Source of the DNA: a bacterium
GTDB taxonomy: Bacteria; Hydrothermota; Tepidihabitantia; SM23-42; JAOAFX01
Reading direction: 5' to 3'
Length of the DNA stretch: 64,000 nt
Assembly (NCBI GenBank): GCA_049700315.1
Contig: JBNAVN010000002.1
Span: 22,002 to 86,001 of the forward strand
Position numbers and translations under genes: made by a program. Shown piece after piece: positions 27,520 through 61,921 of this stretch. The notes under the pieces were generated by a model. It did no database searches, had not been told where the DNA came from, and saw only the letters and a list, made by a program, of their open reading frames with translations. Position 1 is the first letter of the stretch. Each line of letters opens with the position of its first letter.

Positions 27520-28332
27520 TTAGGCTAAACCGAGATCGCGACACACATCAATGACAACCTTTTCATCAACCATTTCCTTTTTCAAAAGAAAACCTTCAAG
27601 TAATGCGTTATCACATATTGCATTTATCATACGAGGAATTCCCTTTGAGAATTGAAAGATATTTTTCATAGCACCGCCGGTAAATAATGGACGAGAACAT
27701 CCAGCCACCCGGAGACGATGAACAACATAATTCTGAGTAGTCTCCTGATCAAGCGCTTCAAGAACACATCTAACAGCAATCCTCTGGTACAATGCTGGAT
27801 CAAGTTTCAGATAGTCTTCCATCTCAGGCAGCCCAAAAAGAATGAAGTTCAGAAGTTTGCCCCGCTCTGATTCAAGATTCAAAAGCCCTCTGATTTCTTC
27901 CATCAAATCCTTTCTCTGCAACATATTCGCTTCATCAATCAGAATAACAACCTTCTTGTTCTTGCCTGTAAGATCGAGTAACCTGTGATAAACTGCGGTA
28001 ATGATCTCAATCTTATTTTCGGATTCAACCGGTGTCTCCAGCATCAAGGAAATTTTTTTAAGAAACCATAGAGATGTAATCTCAGAATGTATAATAACCA
28101 GAAGTGTTGCCTCAACACTATTATTGATCAATTGATCAAGTAATCGCCGTGAAAGGGTTGTTTTCCCGGTGCCAATATCACCGATCAGCAACGCCAGACC
28201 TTTTTCTGTTTCCACCGCATGTGTAAGTTTTGCCAGCGCCTTGGCATGCTGGGGTGAATTATAATAGAACTTCTCATCAGTGGTGAAACTGAATGGATGT
28301 TCTTTCAATTTATAAAAACTTTCATATCCCAT
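27520..28332 (-). CDS. ExeA/GspA/MshM-like AAA ATPase (copy 1)
   Basis: MGYESFYKLKEHPF...LLIGDIGTGKTTL (Walker A), ILIDEAN (Walker B). Overall colinear with the ExeA N-terminal ATPase; no peptidoglycan-binding extension. Confidence 0.75.
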   Translation of the reverse strand: MGYESFYKLKEHPFSFTTDEKFYYNSPQHAKALAKLTHAVETEKGLALLIGDIGTGKTTLSRRLLDQLINNSVEATLLVIIHSEITSLWFLKKISLMLETPVESENKIEIITAVYHRLLDLTGKNKKVVILIDEANMLQRKDLMEEIRGLLNLESERGKLLNFILFGLPEMEDYLKLDPALYQRIAVRCVLEALDQETTQNYVVHRLRVAGCSRPLFTGGAMKNIFQFSKGIPRMINAICDNALLEGFLLKKEMVDEKVVIDVCRDLGLA

Positions 28333-28348
28333 AGCTTCTCACCATTCC

Positions 28349-30226
28349 CTACAAATATGTTACCTTTGATTTCTTAGGTTTTGCTACTTCTTCCGGTTGG
28401 ATTTTCTTGACTTCTTTCGGTGGCGGAGTGGGTGTAACCTCGGTCCGTTTTCTCAATTCCTCTGTGAGTTTGTCTTTCAATTCATTTATTTTCTTTAAAA
28501 GGTCAGGAACACTCTTATCAATATTTGCTGCATTGATATATGATTTAATTGCCATTTTTAAATTCTTCTGCATTTCATAGGCATTTCCTAAGAGAAAATG
28601 CAGACCAAAATATTCCCCGGCCGGGCGTTTGGGTATTGCCAATCCTTCACTCAATACCTTAATTGCCTCATCTATTTTGCCCTTATCAAGCAAACAAGAA
28701 CCAATCATCTCAAAGGACTTTAATTTGAGGTTATCATCCTTTGCCGCAATTTCAAATTCTTCAATTGCCTCCTGATGCAATCCCATTCCTTTATAAGCAA
28801 CGCCCAGGTCATAATGAGAACGATAGTCGCCTTCGCCGATAGATTCAAACACTTCCTTGCGAAACTGCGATATCAAGTCATTGATATTTTGAATACCTGA
28901 CGAGACTGGCTCGCCTTCAATTTCAGTACGCAATACCTGCCCTAAATCAATGAATTCTCTTGCCTTTGTCTCTTCTTCAATCATACTCTGGGCAATGGCG
29001 TTTTGCGGTTCCATTTCCAGAACCTTTCTCAATACTGATTGCGCTTCGGTTCTTGCTTCACGTCTATTTAGAGTTTCCGCAAGATCCAGCATAAAATCTA
29101 TCTGCAGTTTCTTGTCATTTTTAAGTTTAGCGATTTCTATGAGACGTTGCCGGGACTTTAAGTCAAGAGGTCTTAAATCTGCTACTTTCTTATACAAATC
29201 CAGCGCCTGATCATATTTCTTTTCTTTAAATGCCATCCCTGCAGCATCGCGGAAACAACTGATTGCTTCTTCTTCTTCGCCTAAATTCAGGTAAATCTCA
29301 GCCAATTCCTGTGTCCTGACAATTTCGGAAACTTCTTCCTCAGCAGGCTTTTCTTCAATAACTTCAACCTCTGGTTCTGCTTCCTTTGTCTCCACTTCAT
29401 CTTTGAGTAATTCAGCCACCTCAGGAGATACAAAATCCTCTAACGAAAGTTGCCCTTTAACCGGTTCAGGCTCGTGAATTGCTTCTTTTGATTCTTTGAC
29501 TTCCTCTTCTATTTCCATCCGGGGAATTTCAGTTTCTTTTGGCGAAACCTCAATTTCAACTTCTTTGGGAGGTTCGACCTTGACTTCTGGTGTTACTACT
29601 TCCTCAACTACCGGAGCCTCCACTATTGGAGGTTTTTCAACCTCAGGTGTAGTAACAACCTGGGCAGTAACAGTCTCTTTCAACTCCCTCTGTTTTGTTT
29701 CAATTTTCTCTGCCTCTTTTCGCAGGTCAACACTTTGTTCTTTTTTTCCAATCTTTTCGTAGATTGCCGAGATCATTTGAATTACCTTGTAGTTGTTGGG
29801 GACCAAATCTTTTATTGCTTCATAGGTTTTTAAAGCTGCATCAACCTCATTATTCTTCATCTTTCTGTCAGCATACTCAAGATAGTAGTTTGCCGCTTCA
29901 ACAAACTGCCCGAGTTCTTTGTGTAATTCACCCAACAAATTGTAGATTTCTGTCCTTTCCTTATCAAGCCTTAATATTTTTTTGCACAGTGCAATCGCAT
30001 TTGGATAGTATGTTTCTTCAGCAAGGGCATAAGCACCTTTTTCATAAATATCAATTGCTTCTTTTTGACGATTTACTTTGATGTACAGGTCACCCAATTT
30101 GTTAAAGAGTGAACCCTCTTTAGGAAATTCCTGCACCGCCTTCTCAAGTTCAACAATTGCCTTATTGACATCACCTTTTGCTTCTAATTCTGCAACTGTT
30201 CTTTTTATCGTACCTAAATCAGCCAT
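28349..30226 (-). CDS. TPR-repeat protein with central acidic Glu/Pro/Val/Lys-rich low-complexity region (MshN-like partner, copy 1)
   Basis: N- and C-terminal TPR repeats. Central VVTTPEVEKPPIVEAPVVEEVVTPEVKVEPPKEVEIEV... Immediately follows the ATPase with a 1-nt overlap. Confidence 0.6.
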   Translation of the reverse strand: MADLGTIKRTVAELEAKGDVNKAIVELEKAVQEFPKEGSLFNKLGDLYIKVNRQKEAIDIYEKGAYALAEETYYPNAIALCKKILRLDKERTEIYNLLGELHKELGQFVEAANYYLEYADRKMKNNEVDAALKTYEAIKDLVPNNYKVIQMISAIYEKIGKKEQSVDLRKEAEKIETKQRELKETVTAQVVTTPEVEKPPIVEAPVVEEVVTPEVKVEPPKEVEIEVSPKETEIPRMEIEEEVKESKEAIHEPEPVKGQLSLEDFVSPEVAELLKDEVETKEAEPEVEVIEEKPAEEEVSEIVRTQELAEIYLNLGEEEEAISCFRDAAGMAFKEKKYDQALDLYKKVADLRPLDLKSRQRLIEIAKLKNDKKLQIDFMLDLAETLNRREARTEAQSVLRKVLEMEPQNAIAQSMIEEETKAREFIDLGQVLRTEIEGEPVSSGIQNINDLISQFRKEVFESIGEGDYRSHYDLGVAYKGMGLHQEAIEEFEIAAKDDNLKLKSFEMIGSCLLDKGKIDEAIKVLSEGLAIPKRPAGEYFGLHFLLGNAYEMQKNLKMAIKSYINAANIDKSVPDLLKKINELKDKLTEELRKRTEVTPTPPPKEVKKIQPEEVAKPKKSKVTYL

Positions 30227-31047
30227 TATTCAAATTTTAGTCCCAAATTACTAATAACCCTCTCAATAATTGTCTCATCAATGGTCTGTTTGCGTTGAAC
30301 ATAGCCTTCCAGAAGTGCATTATCGCAAATTATGTTTACAAGTCGGGGACGGCCATCAGAATACCGACAGATGAGTTCTTGTGCCATGGGTGCAAAAATC
30401 TGTCGCTGGGTACCAGCAACTGTGAGTCTATGTGATATATACGCCCTTATTGTCTCAGTACCCAACGGTTTCAACTTAACCTTTATGGCAATTCTTTGAT
30501 ACAATGCCCGATTCATCATAAGAAATGACTCTAACTCAGGCAATCCGCTCAGAACGAATGAAATCAATCTCGTATCAGCGATCTCTAAGTTCAACAAACC
30601 TCTTATCTCTTCAAGAATTTCGGGGCTCTTGAGTTTATTCGCCTCATCAATAATGATTATAGTTCTTTCATTTCTTCTATAAATTTCCCGCAATCTGCTT
30701 GAAATGCGAGATACTATTTCAGTCGTAGATGTCCCCAAATCACTCAAACCGATCAAATTTGCGATTTTGGAAAATAACCAGCCGGTGGGAAATTCCGAAT
30801 GGGTTAGAACAATGAGACCGGCTTGATATTTACCGAGGCTCTGAAGTTCCGTAAGCAATTTTCTTACAAGCATTGTTTTGCCAGTCCCAATATCTCCTAC
30901 CAGTATTGCAAGGCCCCGGGTGCCCCGTGCTGCATGCAACAGATATTCCTTGGCAAGCGCATGCTGCGGAGAATTGAAATAAAATTTAGGATCCGGGAGA
31001 TTTGCGAATGGTTCAAATTTTAGTTGATAAAATTCTTGATAACCCAC
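30226..31047 (-). CDS. ExeA/GspA/MshM-like AAA ATPase (copy 2)
   Basis: MGYQEFYQLKFEPF...ILVGDIGTGKTML, IIIDEAN; paralog of 27520-28332. Confidence 0.75.
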   Translation of the reverse strand: MGYQEFYQLKFEPFANLPDPKFYFNSPQHALAKEYLLHAARGTRGLAILVGDIGTGKTMLVRKLLTELQSLGKYQAGLIVLTHSEFPTGWLFSKIANLIGLSDLGTSTTEIVSRISSRLREIYRRNERTIIIIDEANKLKSPEILEEIRGLLNLEIADTRLISFVLSGLPELESFLMMNRALYQRIAIKVKLKPLGTETIRAYISHRLTVAGTQRQIFAPMAQELICRYSDGRPRLVNIICDNALLEGYVQRKQTIDETIIERVISNLGLKFE

Positions 31048-31060
31048 TTAGCCTCCTGTT

Positions 31061-32977
31061 TTATAGAAAAGTAATATTATCCGTCTTTTCTTCAACATCA
31101 ATTTTTCCTTCTTCAGAAAATCCTTCTTTTACCGGTATTCTTTCTTCAATCAATGGTTCTTCAACAACTGGTTTTACTAACTCTTCTTTCGGTTTTTCAA
31201 TTATCACTTCAGGTTCTTGATAAAAAGCTTCTTCCACTTTTTCTGATGTAGCAATTGGCTCTACCTCCGGTGTTTCTTCCTTGATCTCCACGGGTTCAAT
31301 GGCCGCTGGTTTTTCTTCAGGAACCGGTGATGCAGTCTGCGTTTTTGAAATTTCCATTTTACCACCGAGCAATGTATAGATTTCTCTGATGTCCCGGTAG
31401 TCTGGGTTGATCGCCAGAATATGCTCTATTTCCCTTAAGGCATTTTCAAAATCGCCAACACCTTCATAGCCTGAAGCAAGTAGATATCTCAATTCGGTCT
31501 TCTGATCCTCCGGTATCTCTTCAAGCAATATTATCGGTCCGATCACCTTTATGGCTTCATTATACCTGCCTAATTTGATAAGCGATTCCCCAACTATTTC
31601 TAATGAAGCCGGCCAGAACTCTTTTTTGTCCTTTTCACCCTGCAGATAAGAAAGTGCAATTTCAAATAATCCTGAATCAACCGCCATCCTTGCCAAAGGA
31701 ATTTTCTTTTTCGTATCATCTATCTCCCAGGTAATGTTTGTACGAAAATCATCAAATTGTTTTGCCACTTCAAAATTCCTCGGAGTAGGACCAACCTCTG
31801 ATTCCTTAAGCAAAAATTCAATATCCGCAATCTGACCTTCAAGCGGAGGTATCTCTGCTGGCTTCGCTTCAGGAACCTGTTCAACCGGTGGTTCTTCAGC
31901 GACTTTCTCTTCAGATTTGACTTCTTCTTCAGGCTTTTTTTCAATTTCAGAGGGAAATGCAAATCCCTCAATCTCTTTGCTCAGGTCCTTCAATATTTCA
32001 AGGTCACTTTGAATCGCTGTAATTGTTTCATCCGCTTGCTGAAGAGACGGTGGTACCTCAGATTTTATTTCTTCAGTCTTTTCCGTAGAAACTGGGGCGG
32101 GTTCCTCAGGCTCTTTTGTTGGTTTTATCTCAATCTTTTCCTCTACCTTTGGTCTTGCACCCGGCCTTAGTTCATTGAGTTTCTTCAATGCCTCACTATT
32201 ATTGGGGTCAATCTCAAGGATACGATTGAGAACATTGACTGCATCATCAACCTTGCCTTCACGAATTAAATCGTCTGATGCCTTTTTGAATTCAATAATT
32301 GCCTCATCCCGGGAGCCAATTTCATATAATAAATTGCCAAGTTCAATACGACTCCTCGGATCCAGCTCCTCACCACCATCAGTTTGAGGTAGTAACTTCC
32401 GTATCTCATTAAGAATTGTCTCATCATTTATTTCCGCTGCCAAACCCCTTAATTTCACCAATTCATCCTGTGCCTCGCGGTTACGATTTACAGAAAAAAG
32501 TAATTTTGCAAGGGATAAACGCAGTGGTAAATTCTTGGGCTGAAATTCAGCCACCTTGCGTAGTGCTGAGACAAAAAGGGTTTCATCTTTTTTCTCCAGT
32601 GCCCGGGAAGCAAACTCAATTAACCTCTTAAGCGCTTCATTTCGTAGACCATAGAAGTGATATAAGTCAACAAGGCGGAACAATACACTATCATTCATTT
32701 CGTCAATCATCAAAATCTTTTCCAGACAGATAACCGCCTCTGCATACTGCCCGTTGTGCGTATAGTTTTCAAAAGCGTGTTCATAACGAGAAATTGCCTC
32801 ATTGGCTTTTCCCAATTTTATTGCCAAATCCCCGCATAACTCCAGTACTCGGGCACGATTTGGATTTTCATCAAGGGCACGCCTTAAAATAATCTGCGCC
32901 TTTTCATATTTGCCTTCTCTTATATACTGCTGACCTTTTTCCAAGATTTCTGTTTCCATAGTTAACCTACCTTGCAA
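31061..32977 (-). CDS. TPR-repeat protein with central acidic Glu/Pro-rich region (MshN-like partner, copy 2)
   Basis: TPR repeats at both ends; central EEPAPVSTEKTEEIKSEVPP...EEKVAEEPPVEQVPEAKPAEIPP; paralog of 28349-30226. Confidence 0.6.
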   Translation of the reverse strand: MQGRLTMETEILEKGQQYIREGKYEKAQIILRRALDENPNRARVLELCGDLAIKLGKANEAISRYEHAFENYTHNGQYAEAVICLEKILMIDEMNDSVLFRLVDLYHFYGLRNEALKRLIEFASRALEKKDETLFVSALRKVAEFQPKNLPLRLSLAKLLFSVNRNREAQDELVKLRGLAAEINDETILNEIRKLLPQTDGGEELDPRSRIELGNLLYEIGSRDEAIIEFKKASDDLIREGKVDDAVNVLNRILEIDPNNSEALKKLNELRPGARPKVEEKIEIKPTKEPEEPAPVSTEKTEEIKSEVPPSLQQADETITAIQSDLEILKDLSKEIEGFAFPSEIEKKPEEEVKSEEKVAEEPPVEQVPEAKPAEIPPLEGQIADIEFLLKESEVGPTPRNFEVAKQFDDFRTNITWEIDDTKKKIPLARMAVDSGLFEIALSYLQGEKDKKEFWPASLEIVGESLIKLGRYNEAIKVIGPIILLEEIPEDQKTELRYLLASGYEGVGDFENALREIEHILAINPDYRDIREIYTLLGGKMEISKTQTASPVPEEKPAAIEPVEIKEETPEVEPIATSEKVEEAFYQEPEVIIEKPKEELVKPVVEEPLIEERIPVKEGFSEEGKIDVEEKTDNITFL

Positions 32978-52855: not shown

Positions 52856-52906
52856 CATATTGAAATTTGGTGTTGACTTTTCTGAAAATTTCAATTATAA
52901 TTTACT

Positions 52907-53314
52907 ATGAAAGAACCAAGCACGACAATTACCCTGACAAGTGTAGAAATTGAAAAATTGGAAAAACTGCTCAATGACTTCTTTTCACAGACAAATGTCG
53001 TGTGGTCTATGCTGATAACCAGTGCCGGGCACCTTCTTGTGCAAAGGGGCTTTACCCGTTCTTTTGATGTCTTCACAATTGCAGCGCTAACTTGTAATAT
53101 TTTCAATTCCACAATGGAACTGGCGCGGATTGTTGGTGAGAAAAATTTTTCTGAGCTTTTGCAGGAAGGCAAAAGGGCAAGTGTCTATTATGTTTCACTT
53201 GATGGCAATTACCTTCTTGTTTCTCTCTTTGATGACCGAACCATCCCCGGAGTTGTCAAAGTGGCATCCGAAGAGTTTTCCAAAGGTATCAAGGGCATTT
53301 TGAGGACGGTATGA
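52907..53314 (+). CDS. Roadblock/LC7 (MglB-like) domain protein
   Basis: 135 aa; VVWSMLITSAGHLLVQRG...YLLVSLFDD pattern typical of the Roadblock/LC7 fold. Confidence 0.7.
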   Translation: MKEPSTTITLTSVEIEKLEKLLNDFFSQTNVVWSMLITSAGHLLVQRGFTRSFDVFTIAALTCNIFNSTMELARIVGEKNFSELLQEGKRASVYYVSLDGNYLLVSLFDDRTIPGVVKVASEEFSKGIKGILRTV

Positions 53315-55215
53315 CCAAGAAAACCATAGATTTTGAGAACCTCTATGTATACGAAGGCAATAAAGTTGCATATATGGCCGGGCAAAAGATCTTACAATTT
53401 CCGGGAGAAATCTTTAATCCCTTTTATGTATATGCTACAGGTAGTTTTGGTAAGACCTATTTTCTCTGGGCGTTGCATACGGAATTTACAAAGAAGGAAC
53501 CAGCCCTATTTTTTACACCCAAGGAATTTGAAGATTATCTACAGAATACAAATCAATATGACTCAGCGATATTTGTTGATGATATAAATAGAATCAATGA
53601 AAAATATCAAGAACAGATGCTGGCAATGATTGATATACTGATTGCCAAAAACAAACAATTATGCTTTAGTGGTAACGCACCACCCCGGGAACTCAAAAAT
53701 GTAAATGCAAAAATTATCTCACGCCTTGAAGGTGGACTCGTGTGTGATCTACAGGCACCAAGGGAAATGGCACTGGTTGATTTTATCAAAAAGAAATCTG
53801 AAGAAAGAGGAATAATCATACCGGATGATATTGCGCTTGAACTCACCCAGCTTTCTGCAGGCTCTTTTCGGATGATTGATGGTATGTTGAATAGACTCGT
53901 CGCCTATGCTTCATTGGGAAATATCAGTTTTGATTTAAATAGCATTCGTCTAATTTTGAAAGAGTTCTATCCCCGCGGGATATATAGTCCAGTTACTTCG
54001 CTTGTTGAGGAACTGAAAAAAAGCGCGGATGCAGTTTTATCTGAAATTTCTGAGAAAAAAGATCCCCTCAGTGAATATAAAGAAAAGATCTATATCTGGG
54101 AAATGAAGGGATTTGATACATCCGAACTGAAACCTTTTCTTGACGGCGATATTGAGACGGTCGCCAGTGCCTATAACACCTTTATAAAAAGGGTTGAAAG
54201 ACTCATTGAATTGCAGAAGGAATTTGGTGCTATTGATATTTCAAAAGACCCTGAGACAAGCATGAAAATAGAAACCATGCTCTTCTCACCTGATAAAATA
54301 GAAGAAATTGAACAGCTACTTTCAGGTATGAAAGAAAAGGCTCAGGCAGAAGAAAGAAAACCTTTTGAAAACTATATTTTAAGCGAATGTAATAGAACTG
54401 CAATTGAACTTTATGAAAAAACGATACTGCCCAATTTAGGTAAGAAATTTAACCCCTATGTTATTTTCGGAAACAAAGGAACAGGTAAGACCACCTTATG
54501 CCGGGAGATATTTGATGACTTGAAGGCGAGAGGTTTCCGTCCAGTTGTATGTGATTTTGCCCAGGGAATTAAAGAACCCTTTAAGAGCATTAGCGATAAA
54601 AATGCATTGTTAATTGATAATTTTCATAAGATATTTGAAATGGAAGAAAATGTGCGCAATGAATACGCAGAAATGATTCTTGGTTTTATCAAGAATGAAA
54701 ACGCCGTTTTCTTTTTTTGTGAACCGATAAATCCTGATCTCAAACTCACTGAAAGCGAAAAACTGATCTTTGAGTTTGGCGTTGAGGCATCACTAAAGGA
54801 ACCTGATCCGGAGATGGTAAAAAGAATACTCAATTCAAAGTTAAGTCCCACGGAATTTGAAGAAATTCAGAAAAAGGGAATGCCACAATTTAAGAATTTC
54901 AATGAAATTGATGACTTTGTAAGAAACTTGAGAGCGCCCGTTGCTGAACCCGAACCGGTGCCTGCACAAGAAATCATCAGTCTGGGTCTGCCTGGCGAAG
55001 AATCCGCTCAGCCGGTTCCTGAAGTATCAGCAGTACAAAAACCTGAACCCGAACAAAAAGAATTTGTCCAGCCCATTGAACAACCGCCAGTTCCGGAACC
55101 AATAGCGTCAGTTGAAGTACCATTAAGAAAACTGAAAGAGCAGAGATTGCTTGTTCAGGAAATTGCTGACGAATTACTTGAAGAAAATTATGAACCATTG
55201 GGCAAGAAGGAATAA
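53311..55215 (+). CDS. protein with two tandem DnaA/Hda-type AAA+ ATPase modules and a Pro/Glu-rich tail; no DnaA DNA-binding domain IV
   Basis: Module 1: FENLYVYEGNKVA...NPFYVYATGSFGKTYFL (Walker A), IFVDDINRI (Walker B), CFSGN (sensor I), ISRLEGGLVCDL (box VII-like), SAGSFRMIDGMLNRL (sensor II-like), colinear with DnaA domain III. Module 2: NYILSECNRTA...NPYVIFGNKGTGKTTL, LLIDNFHKI. Confidence 0.65.
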   Translation: MTKKTIDFENLYVYEGNKVAYMAGQKILQFPGEIFNPFYVYATGSFGKTYFLWALHTEFTKKEPALFFTPKEFEDYLQNTNQYDSAIFVDDINRINEKYQEQMLAMIDILIAKNKQLCFSGNAPPRELKNVNAKIISRLEGGLVCDLQAPREMALVDFIKKKSEERGIIIPDDIALELTQLSAGSFRMIDGMLNRLVAYASLGNISFDLNSIRLILKEFYPRGIYSPVTSLVEELKKSADAVLSEISEKKDPLSEYKEKIYIWEMKGFDTSELKPFLDGDIETVASAYNTFIKRVERLIELQKEFGAIDISKDPETSMKIETMLFSPDKIEEIEQLLSGMKEKAQAEERKPFENYILSECNRTAIELYEKTILPNLGKKFNPYVIFGNKGTGKTTLCREIFDDLKARGFRPVVCDFAQGIKEPFKSISDKNALLIDNFHKIFEMEENVRNEYAEMILGFIKNENAVFFFCEPINPDLKLTESEKLIFEFGVEASLKEPDPEMVKRILNSKLSPTEFEEIQKKGMPQFKNFNEIDDFVRNLRAPVAEPEPVPAQEIISLGLPGEESAQPVPEVSAVQKPEPEQKEFVQPIEQPPVPEPIASVEVPLRKLKEQRLLVQEIADELLEENYEPLGKKE

Positions 55216-56802
55216 ATGGCGATTAAAGGTTCACTAACTGAAGCCACCCTACCTGATGTCATTCAACTCTTGAGTTATTCTTTACGGTCAGGGTGTCTTT
55301 CTGTAACAGATGGCAAGAACTTTGGAAATATCTTTATTAAAGATGGCCGAATCATTTATGCGACATTACTAAATCGCAAAGACCGACTCGGTGATATGCT
55401 GGTGCGTAAACAAATCATTGACGAATCTACCCTGAAATCAGTACTTGAAGAGCAGCGCCGAACCAACAAACGAGTAGGAGAAATATTGGTGGATAAAGGA
55501 CATATCACGAAAGAAATATTGGAAGGTGAACTGGCAAATCAAATTGCTGAAACCATTTTTACCATGCTCACCTGGGAAACCGGTTATTTCAATTTTGAAG
55601 CTGATTTATTACCTGGCAATGAAGACTTTCTGGTTCAATTATCTCCTCAGGAATTACTCCTGGAAGGTGCAAGACGTATTGATGAATGGCGAAAAATAGA
55701 GAAAAGACTTCCTCCTTTTGAAACCCTGCTGGCTGTGAAAAAAGACTATGCTGGTGTCCCTTTGACTGCCGAAGAAGAAAAAGTATTAAAACTCATTGAT
55801 GGAAATCGCACAATTGATGACATCCTGAAGCTTTCAGAATTTGACTTTTTTGAAACCTGTCGCACAATATATGGGTTGATTTCTGCGGGTATTGTGGAAA
55901 AGCCTGAGAAAACTGAACTCGCAAGGAAAACTGTTGGCGATATTACAGAATATAGAAATCTTGGCTTTGCCTTTTATAAGACTGGAATGTTTGATGAAGC
56001 AGAAAGGGAATTCAAAAAAATTCTGGAGATAACGCCAGATAGTCCTGAAGCACTTATGTATTGCGGGCTTATTGAGATAAGAAGAAAAAATCTTGAAAAA
56101 GCAAAGGAATTTTTGTTTAAGGCAGTCGGTTTAGAAAAAAATCCCGCTATATTAAATAATCTGGGATATGTTTATAATAATCTTAAGTTATTTGACGACG
56201 CACTTAATAATCTAAATCAGGCAAAGCAAGCCTTACCTGATAATCCCAGGATAAGTTGCAATCTGGGTATTTCACTTTTTAACAATGGAGAATTGGAAGA
56301 TGCGAAATCTATCTTCAGGCAGGTTATTGAAAAGAAACCTGAATATATTACACCACATATTTATCTTTCCCTGATATATATAAAATCCAATGATATGGAA
56401 AAGGCAATAGATTTCTTGAAAGAATGTGTGAACAAATTCCCGCGCACCGCAGTATTCAAGAATAACCTCGCAGTTGTTTATGAAGCGCTTGACTTGCCTG
56501 AAGAAGCAGAAAAGACATATCGTCAGGCAGTCAATGATGAACCTCAAAACTATGATATCTGCCGGAATCTCGCTGATTTCTATTATGAATCACAAATACT
56601 GGGTGCCGCAAAAGAACTATATGAAAAGATTCCTGACGAAGAAAAAAACTGGGAGGTTCTCTTTAAATTAGGAAATATTTTGATGCGTTTGGGTGATGCT
56701 GATGGCGCTCTGAATCATTGGGAAAAGGCACAGAGTCTGCATCCTGACCAGCAACTCATAGCCCAGAACATAGAATTATTAAAGAAATCGCGTGGAACAT
56801 AG
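55216..56802 (+). CDS. DUF4388 (N-terminal) plus TPR-repeat protein
   Basis: GSLTEATLPDVIQLLSYSLRSGCLSVTDGKNFGNIFIKDGRIIYA matches the DUF4388 pattern; TPR repeats through the C-terminal 300 aa. Confidence 0.6.
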   Translation: MAIKGSLTEATLPDVIQLLSYSLRSGCLSVTDGKNFGNIFIKDGRIIYATLLNRKDRLGDMLVRKQIIDESTLKSVLEEQRRTNKRVGEILVDKGHITKEILEGELANQIAETIFTMLTWETGYFNFEADLLPGNEDFLVQLSPQELLLEGARRIDEWRKIEKRLPPFETLLAVKKDYAGVPLTAEEEKVLKLIDGNRTIDDILKLSEFDFFETCRTIYGLISAGIVEKPEKTELARKTVGDITEYRNLGFAFYKTGMFDEAEREFKKILEITPDSPEALMYCGLIEIRRKNLEKAKEFLFKAVGLEKNPAILNNLGYVYNNLKLFDDALNNLNQAKQALPDNPRISCNLGISLFNNGELEDAKSIFRQVIEKKPEYITPHIYLSLIYIKSNDMEKAIDFLKECVNKFPRTAVFKNNLAVVYEALDLPEEAEKTYRQAVNDEPQNYDICRNLADFYYESQILGAAKELYEKIPDEEKNWEVLFKLGNILMRLGDADGALNHWEKAQSLHPDQQLIAQNIELLKKSRGT

Positions 56803-57577
56803 TTTTCAAAATTTAATAAAGCTTGTAGAAGAGAAAACCGGATTCAAATGCGGAAGTTATAAAGAAAAACCCCTGACCCGCCGAATAAGAGTTCGTATGC
56901 GCGCCCTTGGTTTTAATGAATTCTCTCAGTATCATGATTATCTTATCAATAATCCTGAAGAATTTGGAAAACTTCTTGATACGCTTACCATAAAACTGTC
57001 ATACTTCTTCAGAAACTCAGAAACATTTGAGTATCTGAAAAATGAAATTATGCCACGCCTGGCAGAAAATGAACAGATTACGATCTGGAGTGCGGGCTGT
57101 GCCCAGGGTGAAGAACCCTATTCACTGGCGATCATTGCTGCGGAATCAAACATCCTGGAAAAACTCGTTATTTATGCAACAGACATTGACGAACAAGCAT
57201 TGATGAAAGCCAGACAGGGGACTTATCCTTCGTTAGTTTTTCAATATACTCCCAAGCCATATATTGAAAAATACTTTATCAAGTGTAGCGATGGCTATCA
57301 GATAAAAGATAATTTAAAATCAGTTATTCAGTTCAGTCACCTTGACCTCTTTGATAATTTCCCGTTCGGATTATGTAATCTGATTATGTGCCGCAATGTT
57401 CTTATCTATATGGATCGCAGTGCACAATCAACCCTGGTGCGTAAACTTTACGAAACACTTAAACCGGGTGGTTATCTTGTCATTGGCAAAGTAGAACTTC
57501 TCCTTGGAATCCCTGAGGCAAAGCTATTTGAAATCGTTAATCGCTCGGAAAGGGTATATCAAAAAATTGATAGGTGA
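56792..57577 (+). CDS. cheR: protein-glutamate O-methyltransferase CheR
   Basis: N-terminal helical domain (LTRRIRVRMRALG); SAM-binding IWSAGCAQGEEPYSLAI; 261 aa. Confidence 0.85.
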   Translation: MEHSFQNLIKLVEEKTGFKCGSYKEKPLTRRIRVRMRALGFNEFSQYHDYLINNPEEFGKLLDTLTIKLSYFFRNSETFEYLKNEIMPRLAENEQITIWSAGCAQGEEPYSLAIIAAESNILEKLVIYATDIDEQALMKARQGTYPSLVFQYTPKPYIEKYFIKCSDGYQIKDNLKSVIQFSHLDLFDNFPFGLCNLIMCRNVLIYMDRSAQSTLVRKLYETLKPGGYLVIGKVELLLGIPEAKLFEIVNRSERVYQKIDR

Positions 57578-57603
57578 TATGAAACAAAACTTCCTCAAAT
57601 AAT

Positions 57604-58065
57604 ATGGCGATTGAACAGAAAGTTGGCATTGGTGAGATTATGATTGCACAGGGTGATGTAATCCTTTCTGCATACGGTGTTGGGTCCTGCGTTGTATTAA
57701 CATTCTATGATGCAAAAACCAAAACCGGCGGACTTGCTCACATCCTCCTTCCCCATGGTGCTGATGGCAGTTTTAAACACCCTAAAGGTGCAATTGAAGA
57801 AATGATAAAACAGTTCACAACCCGGGGCATAGATAGAAAACAGATTGTTGCAAAGATTGCCGGTGGTTCTACAATGTTCAGTGATTTAATACAATCATCT
57901 ATTGGCCAGCGAAATGTAACTGAAACCAGAGAACAGTTAAGGAAGTTTTCAATTACCCTGATCGCTGAAGATGTGTATGGCAACTGGGGCAGAACAATCT
58001 TCTTCAATCTCAACACGGGCGAAGTCTTGATAAAATCCTATCGTCATGGAGAAAAAGTCATTTAG
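57604..58065 (+). CDS. cheD: chemoreceptor glutamine deamidase CheD
   Basis: VGIGEIMIA...GVGSCVVLTFYD...GGLAHILLP matches the CheD signature. Confidence 0.8.
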   Translation: MAIEQKVGIGEIMIAQGDVILSAYGVGSCVVLTFYDAKTKTGGLAHILLPHGADGSFKHPKGAIEEMIKQFTTRGIDRKQIVAKIAGGSTMFSDLIQSSIGQRNVTETREQLRKFSITLIAEDVYGNWGRTIFFNLNTGEVLIKSYRHGEKVI

Positions 58066-59073
58066 ATGAAGAAAAAAATTCTTATTGTGGAAGATTCTGT
58101 GTTGATGCAAAGGGTGATTGCAGATATTATCCAATCATCGGGTGAATTTGAGGTGTGTGGTTATGCACGGGATGTTAATGAGGCATGGGCAAAATTTAGT
58201 AAGTTGAAACCTGATGTTATAACACTTGATTTTGAACTGCCCGGTGAAAACGGACTTGTATTTCTACAAAAAATTATGGGTATAAGTCCTACTCCGGTTC
58301 TGATGCTTTCCGCCCACACCAGACAGGGTGCAGATATTACAATAAAATCCCTCCAAATGGGTGCGATTGATTTCTTTCCAAAACCTTCTGGCCCCATATC
58401 AATTGACCTTTATGATTTTAAAGAGGAACTATTGTCAAAACTCAAAGGGGTTGCCAATGCAAATCTGAGACCGATTGTCTCAGTCACCAATATCAAGCCC
58501 GTGACAAAAAAATCCGAATATGTCATTGGAATTGCGTCTTCTACAGGCGGTGTCAAGGCATTAAATTTTTTGATATCATCTTTGAATAATGAACCCGGTT
58601 ATAGAATTATTGTGGTTCAGCATATGCCAAAGTTCTTTACTACAAGTCTTGCCATGCATCTAAATGAGAAAACAAGTCTTTCAGTAAAAGAAGCAACAAA
58701 TGGTGAGCCAATAGTGTCTGGAACTGTCTTTATTGCGCCGGGCGGAAATCACATAAAAGTTCATCCCTCAGGCAAAATGCTTGTTCTAACTGATGACCCT
58801 CCAAAATATGGTCTAAAACCCTGTGCAGATTTACTTTTTGAATCCATGGCTGAAACATTTAAGAACAAATCACTGGGTATCGTTCTTTCTGGAATGGGAC
58901 GGGACGGAACCGCGGGACTGAGAAGAATTAGAGCATACGGTGGTATTACAATTGCCCAGGAACCATCTGAAGCAACAATCGCAAGTATGCCACAATCGGC
59001 AATAGATGCTGGAGTCATTGATTATGTTCTGCCCTTGCGCTTAATACTAAATAAATTAGCAGAGATTGAATGA
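58066..59073 (+). CDS. cheB: protein-glutamate methylesterase/response regulator CheB
   Basis: REC domain (ILIVEDS, phospho-acceptor in VITLDFELPG); methylesterase Ser (IASSTGG), His (VVQHMP), Asp (GMGRDG). Confidence 0.85.
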   Translation: MKKKILIVEDSVLMQRVIADIIQSSGEFEVCGYARDVNEAWAKFSKLKPDVITLDFELPGENGLVFLQKIMGISPTPVLMLSAHTRQGADITIKSLQMGAIDFFPKPSGPISIDLYDFKEELLSKLKGVANANLRPIVSVTNIKPVTKKSEYVIGIASSTGGVKALNFLISSLNNEPGYRIIVVQHMPKFFTTSLAMHLNEKTSLSVKEATNGEPIVSGTVFIAPGGNHIKVHPSGKMLVLTDDPPKYGLKPCADLLFESMAETFKNKSLGIVLSGMGRDGTAGLRRIRAYGGITIAQEPSEATIASMPQSAIDAGVIDYVLPLRLILNKLAEIE

Positions 59074-59948
59074 TTATGATTGAAAAGATAAGACAACAGT
59101 TAAATGAACTTGCCAAATTGGTCAAGGAATATACCCCGGATAAAGAAAACAGGATTAAGGAATTGATAAGAAAGTTGTATATTGATATTGTCAATGAAAT
59201 GAAATATCTTAATCAAACCCAGGATGAACTGCACCGGCTTGCCCAAGAATTCCGCAATCGAAAAACGAGCAAAGTAGAAATGGATCGTTTTTACTCTTTT
59301 ATCAAGGCGCGCACATCACCCGAACTTGACATTGCTACACTCCTTGACCGTGCCTGGAATTTAATCGTAATGGAGGAATACGATGAAGCAACAAGTATTT
59401 TGAAGAAGGTTCTGGATATAGACCCCAAGAACATACGTGGTCTGGGTTTGATTGGCCTTACCTTAATGAACAAAGAAATGTACGATGATGCAATGCTTTA
59501 TTTTCAAAAGGTCATTTTGATCGAACCGGACAACCCATTTGCCCTTAATAATCTGGGTTATATTTGTTACAAGAAAGGTATCTGGGGAGAGGCGATTGAA
59601 CACCTGAGCAAAGTTGCGAAGCAAACAAAAGACAAAATGGCAAAACTATATGCCAATTATTACCTTGGGCTGGTCTATAGTGAACGGGGGATGACTGATG
59701 ATGCCATCAAATTCTTCCAGGAGGCGCTAAAACTTGGTCCCAACTTACAAGAAGTCTATTATTATCTGGGACTCGCCGAATTGAAAAGATATGAATTTCA
59801 TAAGGCAGTTGAATACTTTGACAAGTGTATCAAGATTGATATGGAATCAAAATATGGAAAACTTGCTGAGGAAGAAGCAAAAAAGATAAGGCCAATCCTT
59901 GAACCCGAAAAGATTTTGAAAAATAGAAATAAAGATGAATCTAAGTAG
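59070..59948 (+). CDS. TPR-repeat protein
   Basis: Multiple TPR motifs (ALNNLGYICYKKGIWGEAIEHL etc.); 4-nt overlap with cheB. Confidence 0.6.
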   Translation: MIMIEKIRQQLNELAKLVKEYTPDKENRIKELIRKLYIDIVNEMKYLNQTQDELHRLAQEFRNRKTSKVEMDRFYSFIKARTSPELDIATLLDRAWNLIVMEEYDEATSILKKVLDIDPKNIRGLGLIGLTLMNKEMYDDAMLYFQKVILIEPDNPFALNNLGYICYKKGIWGEAIEHLSKVAKQTKDKMAKLYANYYLGLVYSERGMTDDAIKFFQEALKLGPNLQEVYYYLGLAELKRYEFHKAVEYFDKCIKIDMESKYGKLAEEEAKKIRPILEPEKILKNRNKDESK

Positions 59949-60726
59949 CATTCTGGAACAAGTAACAAAAATTGTTGTCAATACCGGTGACCATATACAC
60001 CGTCTTTCAAATCAGAGAAAATACATATCCTACAAAGGTGTTGTAGACCTTGTAACCCAATTTGATAAGCTCGCCCAAACAAGGATTGTAACCTATTTAA
60101 GAAGAAATTTCCCAGAATACAGTATCTTGAGTGAAGAGAATTTCAGTCATAATACGAAAACACCAATGAAATGGCTCCTTGATCCACTGGACGGTACGAC
60201 TAACTTTGCCCACAATCTACCAATATGGGCAATTTCACTTGGTCTGGAAGTAGAAGGCAGAATTGTACTTGGGCTGGTCTATGATCCAACAAGAAAAGAA
60301 TTGTTCTCCGCAATCAAACGAAAAGGAGCATTTTTAAACAAGAAAAAGATAACTGTATCAAATACAAAAAAATTAAACCAGAGTCTTCTGGTAACTGGAT
60401 TTCCTTATGACATAAGAGAAAGCAAAGAGAATAATCTGAATTACTTTGCGCGATTTTGCATTTGTGCCCAGGCAGTAAGAAGATTGGGTTCAGCTGCCCT
60501 TGACCTGTGCTATACTGCCTGTGGCAGGTTTGATGGTTACTGGGAACTCAAATTATCACCCTGGGATCAGGCAGCAGGTTCATTGATTTTGACAGAAGCC
60601 GGTGGAGAGATCACTGATTTTAAGGGTCGTCCATTCACTATCTATGGCAGGGAAGTTCTGGGAACAAATGGATTGATCCATGAACAGATGATAAAAATCT
60701 TACAGGGTTCAGGGCACGGCAGTTAG
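59935..60726 (+). CDS. inositol monophosphatase family protein (SuhB-like)
   Basis: WLLDPLDGTTNFAH metal-binding motif; GSAALDLCYTACG. Confidence 0.8.
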   Translation: MNLSSILEQVTKIVVNTGDHIHRLSNQRKYISYKGVVDLVTQFDKLAQTRIVTYLRRNFPEYSILSEENFSHNTKTPMKWLLDPLDGTTNFAHNLPIWAISLGLEVEGRIVLGLVYDPTRKELFSAIKRKGAFLNKKKITVSNTKKLNQSLLVTGFPYDIRESKENNLNYFARFCICAQAVRRLGSAALDLCYTACGRFDGYWELKLSPWDQAAGSLILTEAGGEITDFKGRPFTIYGREVLGTNGLIHEQMIKILQGSGHGS

Positions 60727-60761: not shown

Positions 60762-60789
60762 TTGACATAAAACGAGATATTATTATAAT
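60762..60789 (+). promoter_or_regulatory. sigma70 consensus promoter TTGACA-N16-TATAAT upstream of 60806
   Basis: ttgaca 60762-60767 and tataat 60784-60789, followed by SD aggagg and ATG. Confidence 0.5.
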
Positions 60790-60805: not shown

Positions 60806-61921
60806 ATGAAATCTATTATTGTTTTTTTAATGTTATTTGTGCCCTGGGTCGGTTTCTCAAATCCGTATATGATGGAGGTGATAAACGAATTTCAGACTGC
60901 CATCTCAGATTCACAAAGAATTGAATTTCGTTATTTCCAGATTCCTGCTTATGATACAATCTTTTTAGACCAGCCTCTCTTGAATGGAGTGATCACTACT
61001 CCAGCTGGCACTGCCTATATTGATACAGGAATAACCCTGCCAGGTTGTGGCTATGCAGTAATTGACACATCGGTACTAACCGGGTCTTTCAGTCTACCCG
61101 GGGACAGCGGATTTATTCATTCCTATCTTCCTTATTCCTGGGATAGTATCTGTTATCCCTGTTCCTCTTTTTCGTGGAAGCATCTGATAATCCCAGCACC
61201 ACCTGCAGGCGCATCTGCTGCAAAGTATCATTGTTGGTTATATGATAGTACAGAAGGTTATTTGTTGATTACTGATTGGTATATTGATTATACACCTACC
61301 TTCGGTTCTGATAATGATGATTATCCAGGGTGTAATATATCGGGTTATGTTTGTGAAAGTGGTTCTGGTTTACCGATTGTCGGAGCAACTGTTCAGGCAA
61401 TCCTGCCACCATATTATGAAGTTTGTAATTATGAACCGTATTACATTGCCTGCACAACACACACCCAATCTGACGGCTCATATTCACTGGATAGCCTCTT
61501 ACCACTACCTTATTATATAAATGTTTCAATTCCGGGCTATCAATCAATTAGCGATTCCGTTCCTGTTCTGCGTGCATTAAAACCATTGACCGGTTTCAAT
61601 TTTTATCTTGTTGGGATTGGAGAGAACAACACAGCACAGAGTCTGAGAATAAGAAATCCAGAGCTGGAAGTTTATCCAATTCTTTTCAGCAACAATCTGC
61701 TGATCAGGTTCTTGCCCGGTACAATGTCTGCCGGACAAAACAGGTATGATTTAAGAATCTATGATGCAACCGGCAGGCTGGTCAGGCAGTGGAATGTTGA
61801 AACAATAAGGCAAGGATACCAGGTTATCTGGGATGGTACTGATGATTTTGGCAAAGCGGTTTCCAAGGGTGCTTATTTCATCTGTATGGCGGACATCCGG
61901 GTAAAGGTGATTAGATTATAA
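60806..61921 (+). CDS. secreted protein with CarboxypepD_reg-like beta-sandwich and putative T9SS C-terminal domain
   Basis: Signal peptide; GYVCESGSGLPIVGATVQA; C-terminal ...DGTDDFGKAVSKGAYFICMADIRVKVIRL resembles the Por-sorting CTD. Confidence 0.5.
   Translation: MKSIIVFLMLFVPWVGFSNPYMMEVINEFQTAISDSQRIEFRYFQIPAYDTIFLDQPLLNGVITTPAGTAYIDTGITLPGCGYAVIDTSVLTGSFSLPGDSGFIHSYLPYSWDSICYPCSSFSWKHLIIPAPPAGASAAKYHCWLYDSTEGYLLITDWYIDYTPTFGSDNDDYPGCNISGYVCESGSGLPIVGATVQAILPPYYEVCNYEPYYIACTTHTQSDGSYSLDSLLPLPYYINVSIPGYQSISDSVPVLRALKPLTGFNFYLVGIGENNTAQSLRIRNPELEVYPILFSNNLLIRFLPGTMSAGQNRYDLRIYDATGRLVRQWNVETIRQGYQVIWDGTDDFGKAVSKGAYFICMADIRVKVIRL

Follow-up and report, generated by a model that had tools for sequence, protein, structure and literature searches.

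A chemotaxis-type methylation gene cluster with MglB and a tandem DnaA-fold ATPase in candidate division WOR-3, and its larger counterpart in Gemmatimonadales

Bacteria of candidate division WOR-3 carry a conserved gene cluster in which the chemotaxis-type enzymes CheR, CheD and CheB are joined to an MglB-type Roadblock protein, a tandem DnaA-fold ATPase and TPR proteins. We analysed the copy present in a 64-kb stretch of DNA (contig JBNAVN010000002.1 of assembly GCA_049700315.1, positions 22,002 to 86,001; hereafter the window, whose own numbering is used unless a locus is named). By gene content and order the WOR-3 cluster is a subset of a Che and MglAB supercluster common to Gemmatimonadota, since each of its components has a counterpart there in the same relative order. 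The absence of CheA, CheW and CheY from the window's cluster is a derived, local state, because the orthologous operon of Gemmatimonadales carries CheA, CheY, CheC and three CheW. Here the initial annotation of this DNA needs revision: CheR, CheD and CheB belong to the adaptation branch of a larger chemosensory pathway and are no stand-alone toolkit. Our reading, held with moderate confidence, is that of a polarity hub in which a Frz-like chemosensory system is combined with MglAB; it is probably linked to pili, and its kinase and receptor would be encoded elsewhere or have been lost.

Gene content and conservation of the cluster

The cluster consists of seven co-directional genes on the + strand, directly preceded by def-fmt-rsmB in the open reading frame (ORF) listing. 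In order, they encode an MglB-type Roadblock/LC7 protein (135 aa; 52907..53314; Pfam Robl_LC7, NCBIfam and PDB sequence matches), a tandem DnaA/Hda-fold AAA+ ATPase, here called AAA2 (634 aa; 53311..55215; Pfam Bac_DnaA, AlphaFold2 (AF2) and Foldseek), a protein with a PATAN (DUF4388) domain, an MshEN-type insert and a C-terminal TPR region, here called PATAN/TPR (528 aa; 55216..56802; Pfam, NCBIfam and AF2), the protein-glutamate O-methyltransferase CheR (261 aa, GTG start; 56792..57577; Pfam CheR_N and CheR), the glutamine deamidase CheD (153 aa; 57604..58065; Pfam CheD), the methylesterase CheB with an N-terminal receiver (REC) domain (335 aa; 58066..59073; Pfam REC and CheB_methylest, NCBIfam) and a TPR protein, here called TPR7 (292 aa; 59070..59948; Pfam TPR families). 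An inositol monophosphatase family protein follows on the same strand (IMPase, 263 aa; 59935..60726; Pfam Inositol_P, 221.6 bits). All seven ORFs of the cluster lie where the initial annotation had placed them, between 52907 and 59948 with rsmB upstream, and its domain assignments for the seven genes and the IMPase were confirmed by Pfam and NCBIfam.

For comparison, 21 loci were taken from GTDB species representatives, two complete WOR-3 chromosomes (CP070664.1 and CP070834.1) being included. By tblastn with the window proteins, the order Roadblock - ATPase - PATAN/TPR - CheR - CheD - CheB - TPR - IMPase is present in all loci with enough flanking sequence except L013, L019 and L021. The same gene order recurs in about 20 WOR-3 contigs, with ATPase identities down to 38-45%, and Pfam-annotated neighbourhoods agree with this. 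When compared with two relatives, all eight genes have ratios of nonsynonymous to synonymous substitution (dN/dS) of 0.02-0.10, and pN is far below pS. Because the same order recurs in so many contigs at such low dN/dS values, the arrangement is not due to chance. The initial annotation had left room for ATPase and Roadblock genes without conserved linkage to cheRDB in related genomes; across WOR-3 this linkage is firmly conserved.

Searching with PATAN/TPR brought up homologues over the full length in Gemmatimonadales (38-40% identity), and walking their neighbourhoods to both ends yielded a 19-gene operon. Its gene order begins with CheW - CheY - CheA - CheC - TPR (896 aa) - PATAN/TPR (383) - TPR+Roadblock (300) - Roadblock (117), and it continues with MglB-like (156) - MglA - tandem DnaA-like ATPase (649) - PATAN/TPR (538) - CheR - CheD - CheB - CheW - CheW - TPR (287), so that the MglAB/PATAN/ATPase genes sit between cheA-cheC and cheR-cheW. 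Upstream it borders on ileS-dksA-lspA-rluD; downstream come a peptidase gene and division genes. All WOR-3 components except the IMPase have counterparts in this operon, and their relative order is kept (AAA2 - PATAN/TPR - CheR - CheD - CheB - ... - TPR7). Identities to these counterparts are 38% for PATAN/TPR, CheR and CheB, 34% for CheD and 24-30% for the ATPase, which is collinear over 545 residues (E=7e-42); for MglA, encoded in WOR-3 loci other than the window, the value is about 51%. According to Pfam, the additional operon proteins contain TPR and Roadblock domains only, the Gemmatimonadales CheA has no fused REC domain (CheY being a separate protein of 120 aa), and no MCPsignal domain, the mark of methyl-accepting chemotaxis proteins (MCPs), occurs in the 19-gene operon.

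The Roadblock protein is a divergent member of the MglB family. It scores 25 bits against Pfam Robl_LC7 (cutoff 23) and 47.7 bits against the NCBIfam MglB model, which is under the equivalog cutoff of 200, and its sole significant PDB matches are MglB structures (6h5b_B, E=1.8e-10, and 1j3w). To the Gemmatimonadales protein that adjoins MglA it is 31% identical (E=2e-12). In eight of the more divergent WOR-3 lineages, both complete chromosomes among them, mglA lies directly upstream of the Roadblock gene; its product (198 aa) scores 233 bits against the solved MglA structures 3t12 and 5ymx (Thermus, Myxococcus). Because mglA adjoins it in these eight lineages, the window's Roadblock gene is best identified as mglB. 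Likewise, mglA upstream in eight loci, together with a Roadblock protein that matches MglB structures alone, points to mglA-mglB as part of the ancestral WOR-3 arrangement. In the window's clade def-fmt-rsmB hold the position upstream of the cluster where mglA sits elsewhere. The protein is thus an MglB orthologue, and the system is not free of a GTPase by design, given the adjacent mglA in eight WOR-3 lineages and in Gemmatimonadales.

Two observations concern these proteins. In all nine WOR-3 MglA sequences (loci L010, L013-L018, L020 and L024; for instance L013:8851-9447) Gln replaces Arg53 (...TDRTLFFDF becomes ...LDQTLFFDF) while Gln82 is kept; Arg53 is retained in MglA of Gemmatimonadales, Myxococcus and Thermus. 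In Gemmatimonadales (L028:16373-18092) three Roadblock proteins stand in a row ahead of MglA, namely a TPR+Roadblock protein of 300 aa, a Roadblock protein of 117 aa and an MglB-like protein of 156 aa, a set reminiscent of the multi-Roadblock GTPase-activating protein (GAP) complexes of Myxococcus (MglB, MglC, RomY).

Reduced versions of the cluster show how it is built up. Loci L013, L030 and L031 contain MglB - ATPase - PATAN/TPR - IMPase, without cheRDB and without TPR7, and at the syntenic site of a third complete WOR-3 chromosome (CP070795) PATAN/TPR - IMPase is found alone. Because of the joint absence of cheRDB and TPR7 in the first three loci and the PATAN/TPR-only state of CP070795, CheR-CheD-CheB-TPR7 is one separable module and MglB-ATPase another; of all the genes in the cluster, PATAN/TPR is the one most widely retained in WOR-3. 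In L030 and L031 (L030:7961-9563, L031:5448-7050) the reduced cluster MglB - ATPase - PATAN/TPR comes directly after parA-parB, an arrangement seen in this sub-lineage only. A further variant occurs in a Ca. Hydrothermales locus (L021:13352-15939), where CheR is followed by an unrelated 606-aa protein without a Pfam match instead of CheD and CheB; the ATPase encoded there has diverged strongly (29% identity) and has a degenerate second P-loop.

The genes of the window are tightly packed. ATGA overlaps are found at two junctions (Roadblock/AAA2 and CheB/TPR7) and gaps of 0 nt at two others (AAA2/PATAN and CheD/CheB). For these four the initial description, which had all genes joined by ATGA overlaps or 0-1 nt gaps, is correct; PATAN/CheR, however, is an 11-nt overlap and CheR/CheD a 26-nt gap. 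TPR7 and the IMPase overlap by 14 nt. A promoter-like site (TTGACT-17-TATAAT, 11/12 matches, + strand) lies at 52873..52901 within the 51-nt spacer between rsmB and mglB, and the next strong one (12/12, + strand) at 60762-60789, beyond the IMPase stop. Terminator-like sites on the + strand are absent within 52907-60726. With promoter-like sites at both ends and no such terminator between them, the region 52907-60726 is in keeping with one transcription unit. The first site has its -10 box ending 5 nt ahead of the Roadblock ATG, which leaves no room for a Shine-Dalgarno sequence; the operon mRNA may be leaderless or nearly so.

The non-obvious ORFs of the 64-kb window were scanned with Pfam, all translations were read, and Gemmatimonadales Che proteins, WOR-3 MglA and the Tsr signalling domain served as tblastn probes; none of this revealed an MCP, CheA, CheW, CheY or MglA. 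The absence of the four chemotaxis components first noted for the cluster is thereby borne out for the window as a whole, the remaining genes of which are for housekeeping, envelope and secreted proteins.

The tandem ATPase and the PATAN/TPR protein

AAA2 matches Pfam Bac_DnaA in two stretches (94.5 bits). The AF2 model, built with 58 homologues, has a mean confidence (pLDDT) of 74.6, with 80-94 for both ATPase modules, and Foldseek matches it to DnaA domain III (8bv3 of B. subtilis, TM 0.83, and 2z4r) and to Hda (3bos). Module 1 (residues 1-220) has the canonical DnaA Walker A, a DD Walker B, the box VII Arg and sensor 2. A linker of low confidence in the AF2 model (222-250) leads to a helical inter-module domain (252-348) with the invariant sequence KIYIWEMKGF, which is followed by module 2 (355-541) with an Hda-like D-N Walker B and by a Pro/Glu-rich tail (544-634) that is fully disordered in the AF2 model. 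Motif conservation was followed in 22 orthologues. One sub-clade shows a Lys-to-Arg change in the P-loop of module 2, and the block EKIYIWEMKGF is invariant across WOR-3, with a recognisable Gemmatimonadales form VMRWEGQGY.

The fold and the motifs of both modules are thus those of DnaA domain III and Hda, whereas the remainder of the protein is not. AAA2 combines two modules in one chain around a unique inter-module domain, has a disordered acidic tail with short linear motifs, and its gene context is signalling rather than replication. There is no Pfam match to DnaA_N (domain I) or Bac_DnaA_C (domain IV). Hda has an N-terminal clamp-binding motif of the QL[SP]LPL type; none of this type is present in the AAA2 N-terminus MTKKTIDFENLYVYEG. 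Because both the terminal DnaA domains and the clamp-binding motif are missing, AAA2 does not appear assignable to either DnaA or Hda. About 100 close relatives exist in the databases, the named ones being from 'candidate division WOR-3' or TA06. True DnaA is reached at E ~1e-16, against ~1e-150 or better for nearly all full-length relatives and 1e-105 for the most divergent. The inter-module domain family has about 50 representatives at 50% clustering, with named members from WOR-3/TA06 and Gemmatimonadota only; roughly half of the matches to this domain were long coiled-coil-like repeat proteins (22-26% identity), which we discounted as compositional. Public labels for the family are 'DnaA/Hda family protein', 'chromosomal replication initiation ATPase DnaA' or hypothetical. 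Since AAA2 lacks DnaA domains I and IV, a DnaA-type label seems misleading for the annotation of origins and DnaA in WOR-3 and Gemmatimonadota.

Comparison of orthologues brings out two short linear motifs in the tail: LGLPGEE (residues 558-564; 54982..55002, + strand) and the acidic-aromatic ELLEENY near the C-terminus (residues 621-627; 55171..55191, + strand). LGLPGEE occurs in most WOR-3 orthologues, in 1-3 copies; it is kept in the Che-less loci L030 and L031 and missing in L013 and L015. ELIEENF or ELIEDNY is the exact C-terminus of AAA2 in most other WOR-3 lineages, and Gemmatimonadales orthologues end in ..RILEELR or ..RMIEDFR. We considered LGLPGEE and the C-terminal ELIE[ED]x[YF] as a docking or substrate site for the Che enzymes and rejected this, as the motifs do not track the presence of the Che module.

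The PATAN/TPR protein matches Pfam DUF4388 (PF14332) with 119 bits, in addition to TPR families. Its AF2 model (pLDDT 89.8) shows a beta-core, a four-helix insert (residues 58-118), a small helical domain and about 14 TPR helix pairs. The insert contains tandem 24-residue motifs of the MshEN type at residues 57-109 (55384..55542, + strand; RLGDMLVRKQIIDESTLKSVLEEQ ... RVGEILVDKGHITKEILEGELANQ), identified by NCBIfam NF053729 (54.5 bits, cutoff 38) and by PDB alignment. As Foldseek of the model against the PDB was dominated by TPR matches and uninformative on the N-terminal domain, a PDB sequence search was used instead: the insert aligns to residues 7-66 of V. cholerae MshE in the MshE-c-di-GMP crystal (5htl, E=1.2e-5) and to the GSPII domains of PilF. 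The key residues R57-L-G, Q80, R86-x-G88 and Q109 are kept in 54-64 of 64 homologues. Wang et al. (2016) defined two such 24-residue motifs and MshEN units bind cyclic di-GMP (c-di-GMP; PMC5013675). With its motif pair complete, the insert is predicted to be a c-di-GMP-binding unit.

It shares with the MshEN/GSPII domains of MshE, PilF and PilB both RLGxx(L/V/I)(L/V/I)xxG(L/V/I)(L/V/I)xxxxLxxxLxxQ motifs with all key residues, next to the direct match to 5htl. In contrast to those domains, which are N-terminal parts of secretion or pilus ATPases, this putative c-di-GMP unit lies inside the PATAN domain of a scaffold that is not an ATPase. A PATAN domain with a helical insertion is also found in the PatA-type PATAN-REC regulators (PixG, PixE, LsiR, PatA) and in other PATAN proteins. 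PATAN genes neighbour mglA/mglB (PMC4316618), and PATAN domains bind PilB1, the type IV pilus motor ATPase of Synechocystis (bioRxiv 10.1101/2021.06.11.447907). Unlike the PatA-type regulators, the window protein has no receiver (no Response_reg match was obtained, and the C-terminus is a long TPR region), it carries the complete MshEN motif pair as its insert, and its gene sits between those of the AAA+ ATPase and CheR.

Proposed function and alternative explanations

CheR, CheD and CheB are typical representatives of their families. CheR scores 175.6 bits against Pfam CheR and 53 bits against CheR_N; among PDB entries the closest is B. subtilis CheR (5ftw, E=5e-37), and the S-adenosylmethionine (SAM) motif WSAGC..GEEPYS is invariant in 17 orthologues. 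CheD (Pfam, 85 bits) matches T. maritima CheD (2f9z, E=1.2e-24), where the segments GSC and AH(I/V)(L/M)LP line up, and its Cys and His are conserved in 16 orthologues. CheB reaches 327.5 bits against NCBIfam NF001965 (cutoff 293) and aligns end to end with Salmonella CheB (1a2o, 213 bits); Asp10, Asp55 and Lys of the REC domain and the Ser, His and Asp motifs of the esterase are invariant in 16 orthologues. Given this invariance and the end-to-end alignment of each to a solved enzyme, the three proteins are predicted to be catalytically intact, as had been supposed from their motifs. The strictly conserved CheB receiver implies a cognate kinase, which in Gemmatimonadales is the operon's CheA and in WOR-3 would have to be encoded elsewhere or replaced. 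TPR7 has a helical and variable N-terminal part of about 90 residues and a nearly invariant TPR core NNLGYICYKKGIWGEAIEHL. In Gemmatimonadales its orthologue (GYICLKKRIFGEAIEHLSK) follows CheB-CheW-CheW and is 34-38% identical, the core GYIC.KK.I.GEAIEHLSK being kept.

In the mechanism that we propose, on the pattern of the Frz-to-MglA/MglB circuit of Myxococcus, two inputs, a phosphorelay of the chemosensory type and c-di-GMP perceived through the MshEN insert, would set or switch the identity of the cell poles, and pole identity would in turn probably control type IV pilus activity. MglB, the ATPase and PATAN/TPR would form the persistent hub. Within it, AAA2 would act as an ATP-dependent assembly switch: the DnaA-like module may self-assemble with ATP while the Hda-like module tunes hydrolysis. 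Its disordered acidic tail would dock to a TPR domain, PATAN/TPR being the likeliest partner because the tail motifs persist where TPR7 is missing. Adaptation would be the task of CheR, CheD, CheB and TPR7, a separable module by which a receptor-like substrate is methylated, deamidated and demethylated. MglA is not encoded in the operon, and neither would be the methyl-accepting substrate or the kinase for the CheB receiver; the likeliest place for all three is elsewhere in the genome.

Several lines lead to this polarity-hub reading. MglB is the GAP of MglA, and the pair defines the cell poles of Myxococcus under control of the Frz chemosensory pathway (PMC3199381, PMC4546325); recruitment of MglAB to a chemosensory system was proposed by Guzzo et al. 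(PMC4546325). To this are added the neighbourhood of PATAN and mgl genes, the binding of PATAN domains to a pilus motor, c-di-GMP binding by MshEN units, and the sole cultured WOR-3 bacterium, a thin rod with pili for which no motility was seen and flagella are not mentioned (PMC12285271). The analogy to MglB and PATAN proteins in Myxococcus polarity that the initial annotation had drawn is well founded. What the comparisons establish is the gene content with its orthology and synteny, the modular losses, the folds, the intact motifs for catalysis and ligand binding, and purifying selection; we infer that the output concerns polarity and pili, that c-di-GMP is bound, that the tail docks to a TPR domain, that the ATPase is a switch and that receptor and kinase lie elsewhere.

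A number of points weigh against this reading. None of the versions of the cluster, neither those in about 25 WOR-3 loci nor the 19-gene Gemmatimonadales operon, has a gene for an MCP. CheA, CheW, CheC and MCP were not detected by tblastn in 488 kb of WOR-3 DNA, which represents mostly one region from many genomes and is not genome-wide (probes: Gemmatimonadales CheA, CheW1-3 and CheC, and the Tsr signalling domain). As for MglA, the window has no gene for it, and in seven sister contigs of the window's clade none lies within 10 kb of the cluster. Miertzschke et al. described Arg53 of MglA as an absolutely conserved intrinsic arginine finger, required for both intrinsic and MglB-stimulated GTP hydrolysis (PMC3199381); without it, the WOR-3 GTPase cycle may differ from the Myxococcus model. 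The pilus link is drawn by analogy, the cultured WOR-3 strain having shown no motility (PMC12285271), and tail-TPR docking, like the other protein contacts within the cluster, is postulated.

The missing receptor suggests another explanation, in which methylation is independent of MCPs: the target of CheR, CheD and CheB would be a Glu/Gln site in a component of the hub (the ATPase, PATAN/TPR or TPR7), and the chemoreceptor's role would fall to the tandem ATPase or to a scaffold of TPRs. The initial annotation had pointed in this direction with a TPR or Hda-like methyl acceptor. In its favour, no version of the cluster has an MCP gene even though the 19-gene operon encodes CheA and three CheW, which normally need a receptor; about 25 WOR-3 contigs show no MCP, CheA or CheW in the vicinity of the cluster, and TPR7 is gained and lost alongside cheRDB. 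All cluster proteins were scanned for the methylation consensus [ASTG][ASTG]xx[EQ][EQ]xx[ASTG][ASTG] and its half-sites. The sole conserved half-site is [ST]SL[LV]EE at residues 229-234 of AAA2, to which the Glu-rich conserved tail motifs of this protein may be added. However, no cluster protein of either phylum has a conserved canonical MCP-type methylation site, and because of this a classical substrate within the cluster seems disfavoured. Moreover, the tail motifs persist in loci without cheRDB, no Glu/Gln pair is conserved in the variable N-terminal part of TPR7, and the best matches of the three enzymes are those of B. subtilis, T. maritima and Salmonella. Many che operons have no MCP gene, their receptors being encoded elsewhere. 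Positive support for an acceptor within the cluster was not obtained, and we regard this explanation as doubtful.

A more radical form of it, which we judge unlikely, would make the cluster a receptor-less chemosensory machine in both phyla, with AAA2, PATAN/TPR and TPR7 replacing a transmembrane or cytoplasmic MCP both as the oligomeric platform of CheW and CheA and as the substrate of CheR, CheD and CheB. Assembly dependent on ATP and c-di-GMP would stand in place of ligand binding. WOR-3 MglA would have lost its intrinsic arginine finger with catalysis supplied in trans by the ATPase or MglB, and the window's clade would run the hub without an adjacent MglA, possibly without any CheA.

One might also argue that the neighbours are functionally unrelated, CheR, CheD and CheB serving a canonical chemotaxis system elsewhere and merely sharing an operon with an MglB/ATPase/PATAN polarity module. 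The separable behaviour of cheRDB and TPR7 as a block and the canonical nature of the enzymes agree with this. Yet the order AAA2 - PATAN/TPR - CheR - CheD - CheB - TPR7 is kept between two phyla at 24-38% identity, with translational coupling; in Gemmatimonadales the MglAB/PATAN/ATPase genes even lie within one operon between cheA-cheC and cheR-cheW; and flagella are not reported for the cultured WOR-3 strain (PMC12285271). Such a fortuitous association is quite improbable.

It is very unlikely that AAA2 is a replication or segregation regulator of the DnaA/Hda type through which the cluster couples replication or partitioning to signalling. This would suit the DnaA domain III/Hda fold of both modules, the Hda-like D-N Walker B of the second and the position directly after parA-parB in L030 and L031, but that adjacency is limited to one sub-lineage, the protein has neither DnaA domain I or IV nor a visible Hda-like clamp-binding motif, true DnaA is far more distant (E ~1e-16) than nearly all family members (~1e-150), and in every case its gene is coupled in translation to mglB or mglA, with PATAN/TPR coming next. 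Finally, the idea that the WOR-3 Che genes are decaying leftovers of a larger ancestral operon after loss of CheA, CheW and CheY, to which the progressive reduction of the cluster within WOR-3 could be related, is close to refuted by the dN/dS values of cheR, cheD and cheB (0.03-0.10, a constraint equal to that on the housekeeping neighbours rsmB or IMPase), by catalytic and phospho-acceptor residues that are invariant in 16-17 orthologues and by intact, translationally coupled reading frames.

Relation to known systems and neighbouring genes

The closest parallel to the proposed polarity hub is the Frz pathway of M. xanthus with MglA/MglB(/RomR). There too, a Che-type pathway with CheR and CheB (FrzF, FrzG) acts together with the MglA GTPase and its Roadblock GAP MglB, the output being cell-pole identity and control of pili or gliding (PMC4546325, PMC4316618). 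Differences are nevertheless considerable. In Myxococcus frz and mglBA are separate loci, whereas here the genes form one operon; Myxococcus has the cytoplasmic MCP FrzCD, the CheA-CheY hybrid FrzE and FrzZ, whereas here no MCP gene was found and CheA and CheY of Gemmatimonadales are separate. Our cluster furthermore includes CheD (with CheC in Gemmatimonadales) and has the tandem DnaA-fold ATPase and PATAN/MshEN/TPR as its core, without a RomR having been seen, and the window version is devoid of CheA, CheW, CheY and MglA. TPR accompanies the methyltransferase in both systems, FrzF itself having a TPR domain. Altogether the cluster is Frz-like in its working, but not a member of the Frz family.

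Similarities also exist to the actinobacterial conservons (CvnA-D), in which a Roadblock protein, an MglA-family GTPase and an ATP-using signalling protein are encoded in conserved operons (PMC4316618, PMC12236503). In the conservons, however, CvnA is a histidine-kinase-like membrane protein instead of a DnaA-fold ATPase, and Che enzymes, PATAN and TPR proteins are not among their components. With the Bacillus/Thermotoga adaptation set CheR-CheB-CheD(-CheC) the cluster has its nearest enzyme relatives in common (B. subtilis for CheR, T. maritima for CheD, with intact catalytic residues), and CheC is present in the Gemmatimonadales version. Unlike that set, it has no linked MCP gene, the flanking proteins are PATAN/TPR and TPR7, and the WOR-3 version has no CheC.

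All components belong to known families. Nonetheless, in the literature searched we found no description of the cluster, of the tandem ATPase family or of a PATAN-MshEN-TPR protein linked to cheRDB, which agrees with the earlier suggestion of an undescribed signalling module, now seen as conserved in order in about 20 WOR-3 contigs and, by its layout, co-transcribed. Papers on WOR-3 genomes are silent on chemotaxis and motility, and their supplements contain no KEGG che entries. The window copy is a trimmed form and, when viewed alone, looks stranger than is warranted.

Outside Myxococcus, the link between chemosensory systems and MglA/MglB has so far been inferred; here both are found in one operon in two deep-branching, mostly uncultured phyla. 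The cluster also brings in three parts without a known role in such circuits: a DnaA-fold tandem ATPase with a disordered tail for which docking is proposed, a PATAN protein with a predicted c-di-GMP unit, and TPR7, which co-varies with CheR, CheD and CheB. Its progressively reduced versions offer a natural series for working out how the parts depend on each other. The 19-gene operon, with CheA and three CheW and no MCP, is a test case for Che methylation enzymes that act without a classical receptor. For the family now labelled 'DnaA/Hda family protein', a first functional context is obtained.

Among the neighbouring genes, the IMPase deserves separate mention. It trails the cluster in all WOR-3 versions, even where PATAN/TPR alone is left, and it is absent from the Gemmatimonadales operon; a gene for inositol-1-phosphate synthase lies near the cluster in L030 and L031. 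Because of this absence in Gemmatimonadales and the nearby synthase gene, the IMPase is probably a WOR-3-specific neighbour, a passenger outside the signalling module, and we rejected it as a working part.

In the WOR-3 lineages that have mglA, two genes always stand ahead of it (L022:6917-8846, with equivalents in L013-L020 and L024): one for a conserved protein of 142 aa without a family match and one for a DHH/DHHA1 protein of about 500 aa (RecJ- or NrnA-like). The DHH phosphoesterase could act on the turnover of pGpG or c-di-NMP. A few kb upstream of mglA, L022 (2835-6488) and L024 (1-4131) contain partner-switching genes, namely an sCache-HAMP-SpoIIE phosphatase, STAS proteins and anti-sigma-type kinases with HATPase_c_2, and L022 has in addition a PAS-HD-GYP protein of the c-di-GMP phosphodiesterase type. 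These upstream genes may possibly provide extra inputs, or their position may be a coincidence.

Elsewhere in the window, on the - strand at 27520-32977, two tandem pairs are found, each of an ExeA-like AAA_22 ATPase of about 270 aa (27520-28332 and 30226-31047) and a TPR protein of about 630 aa (28349-30226 and 31061-32977). The TPR proteins have a Pro/Glu/Lys-rich middle of low complexity, similar in style to the P/E-rich tail of AAA2. We considered these pairs as MshM/MshN pilus genes; the nearest model for the ATPases is the PEP-CTERM-associated ATPase TIGR03015 (188-199 bits, below cutoff), and no inference on pili was drawn from them. Lastly, several secreted proteins end in C-terminal domains of the FlgD_ig/Por_Secre_tail type: window 60806-61921 and 10150-11247 (the latter extremely Gly-rich), L024:5127-6590 and L030:6991-7227. 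This suggests that a type IX-like secretion sorting may operate in WOR-3.

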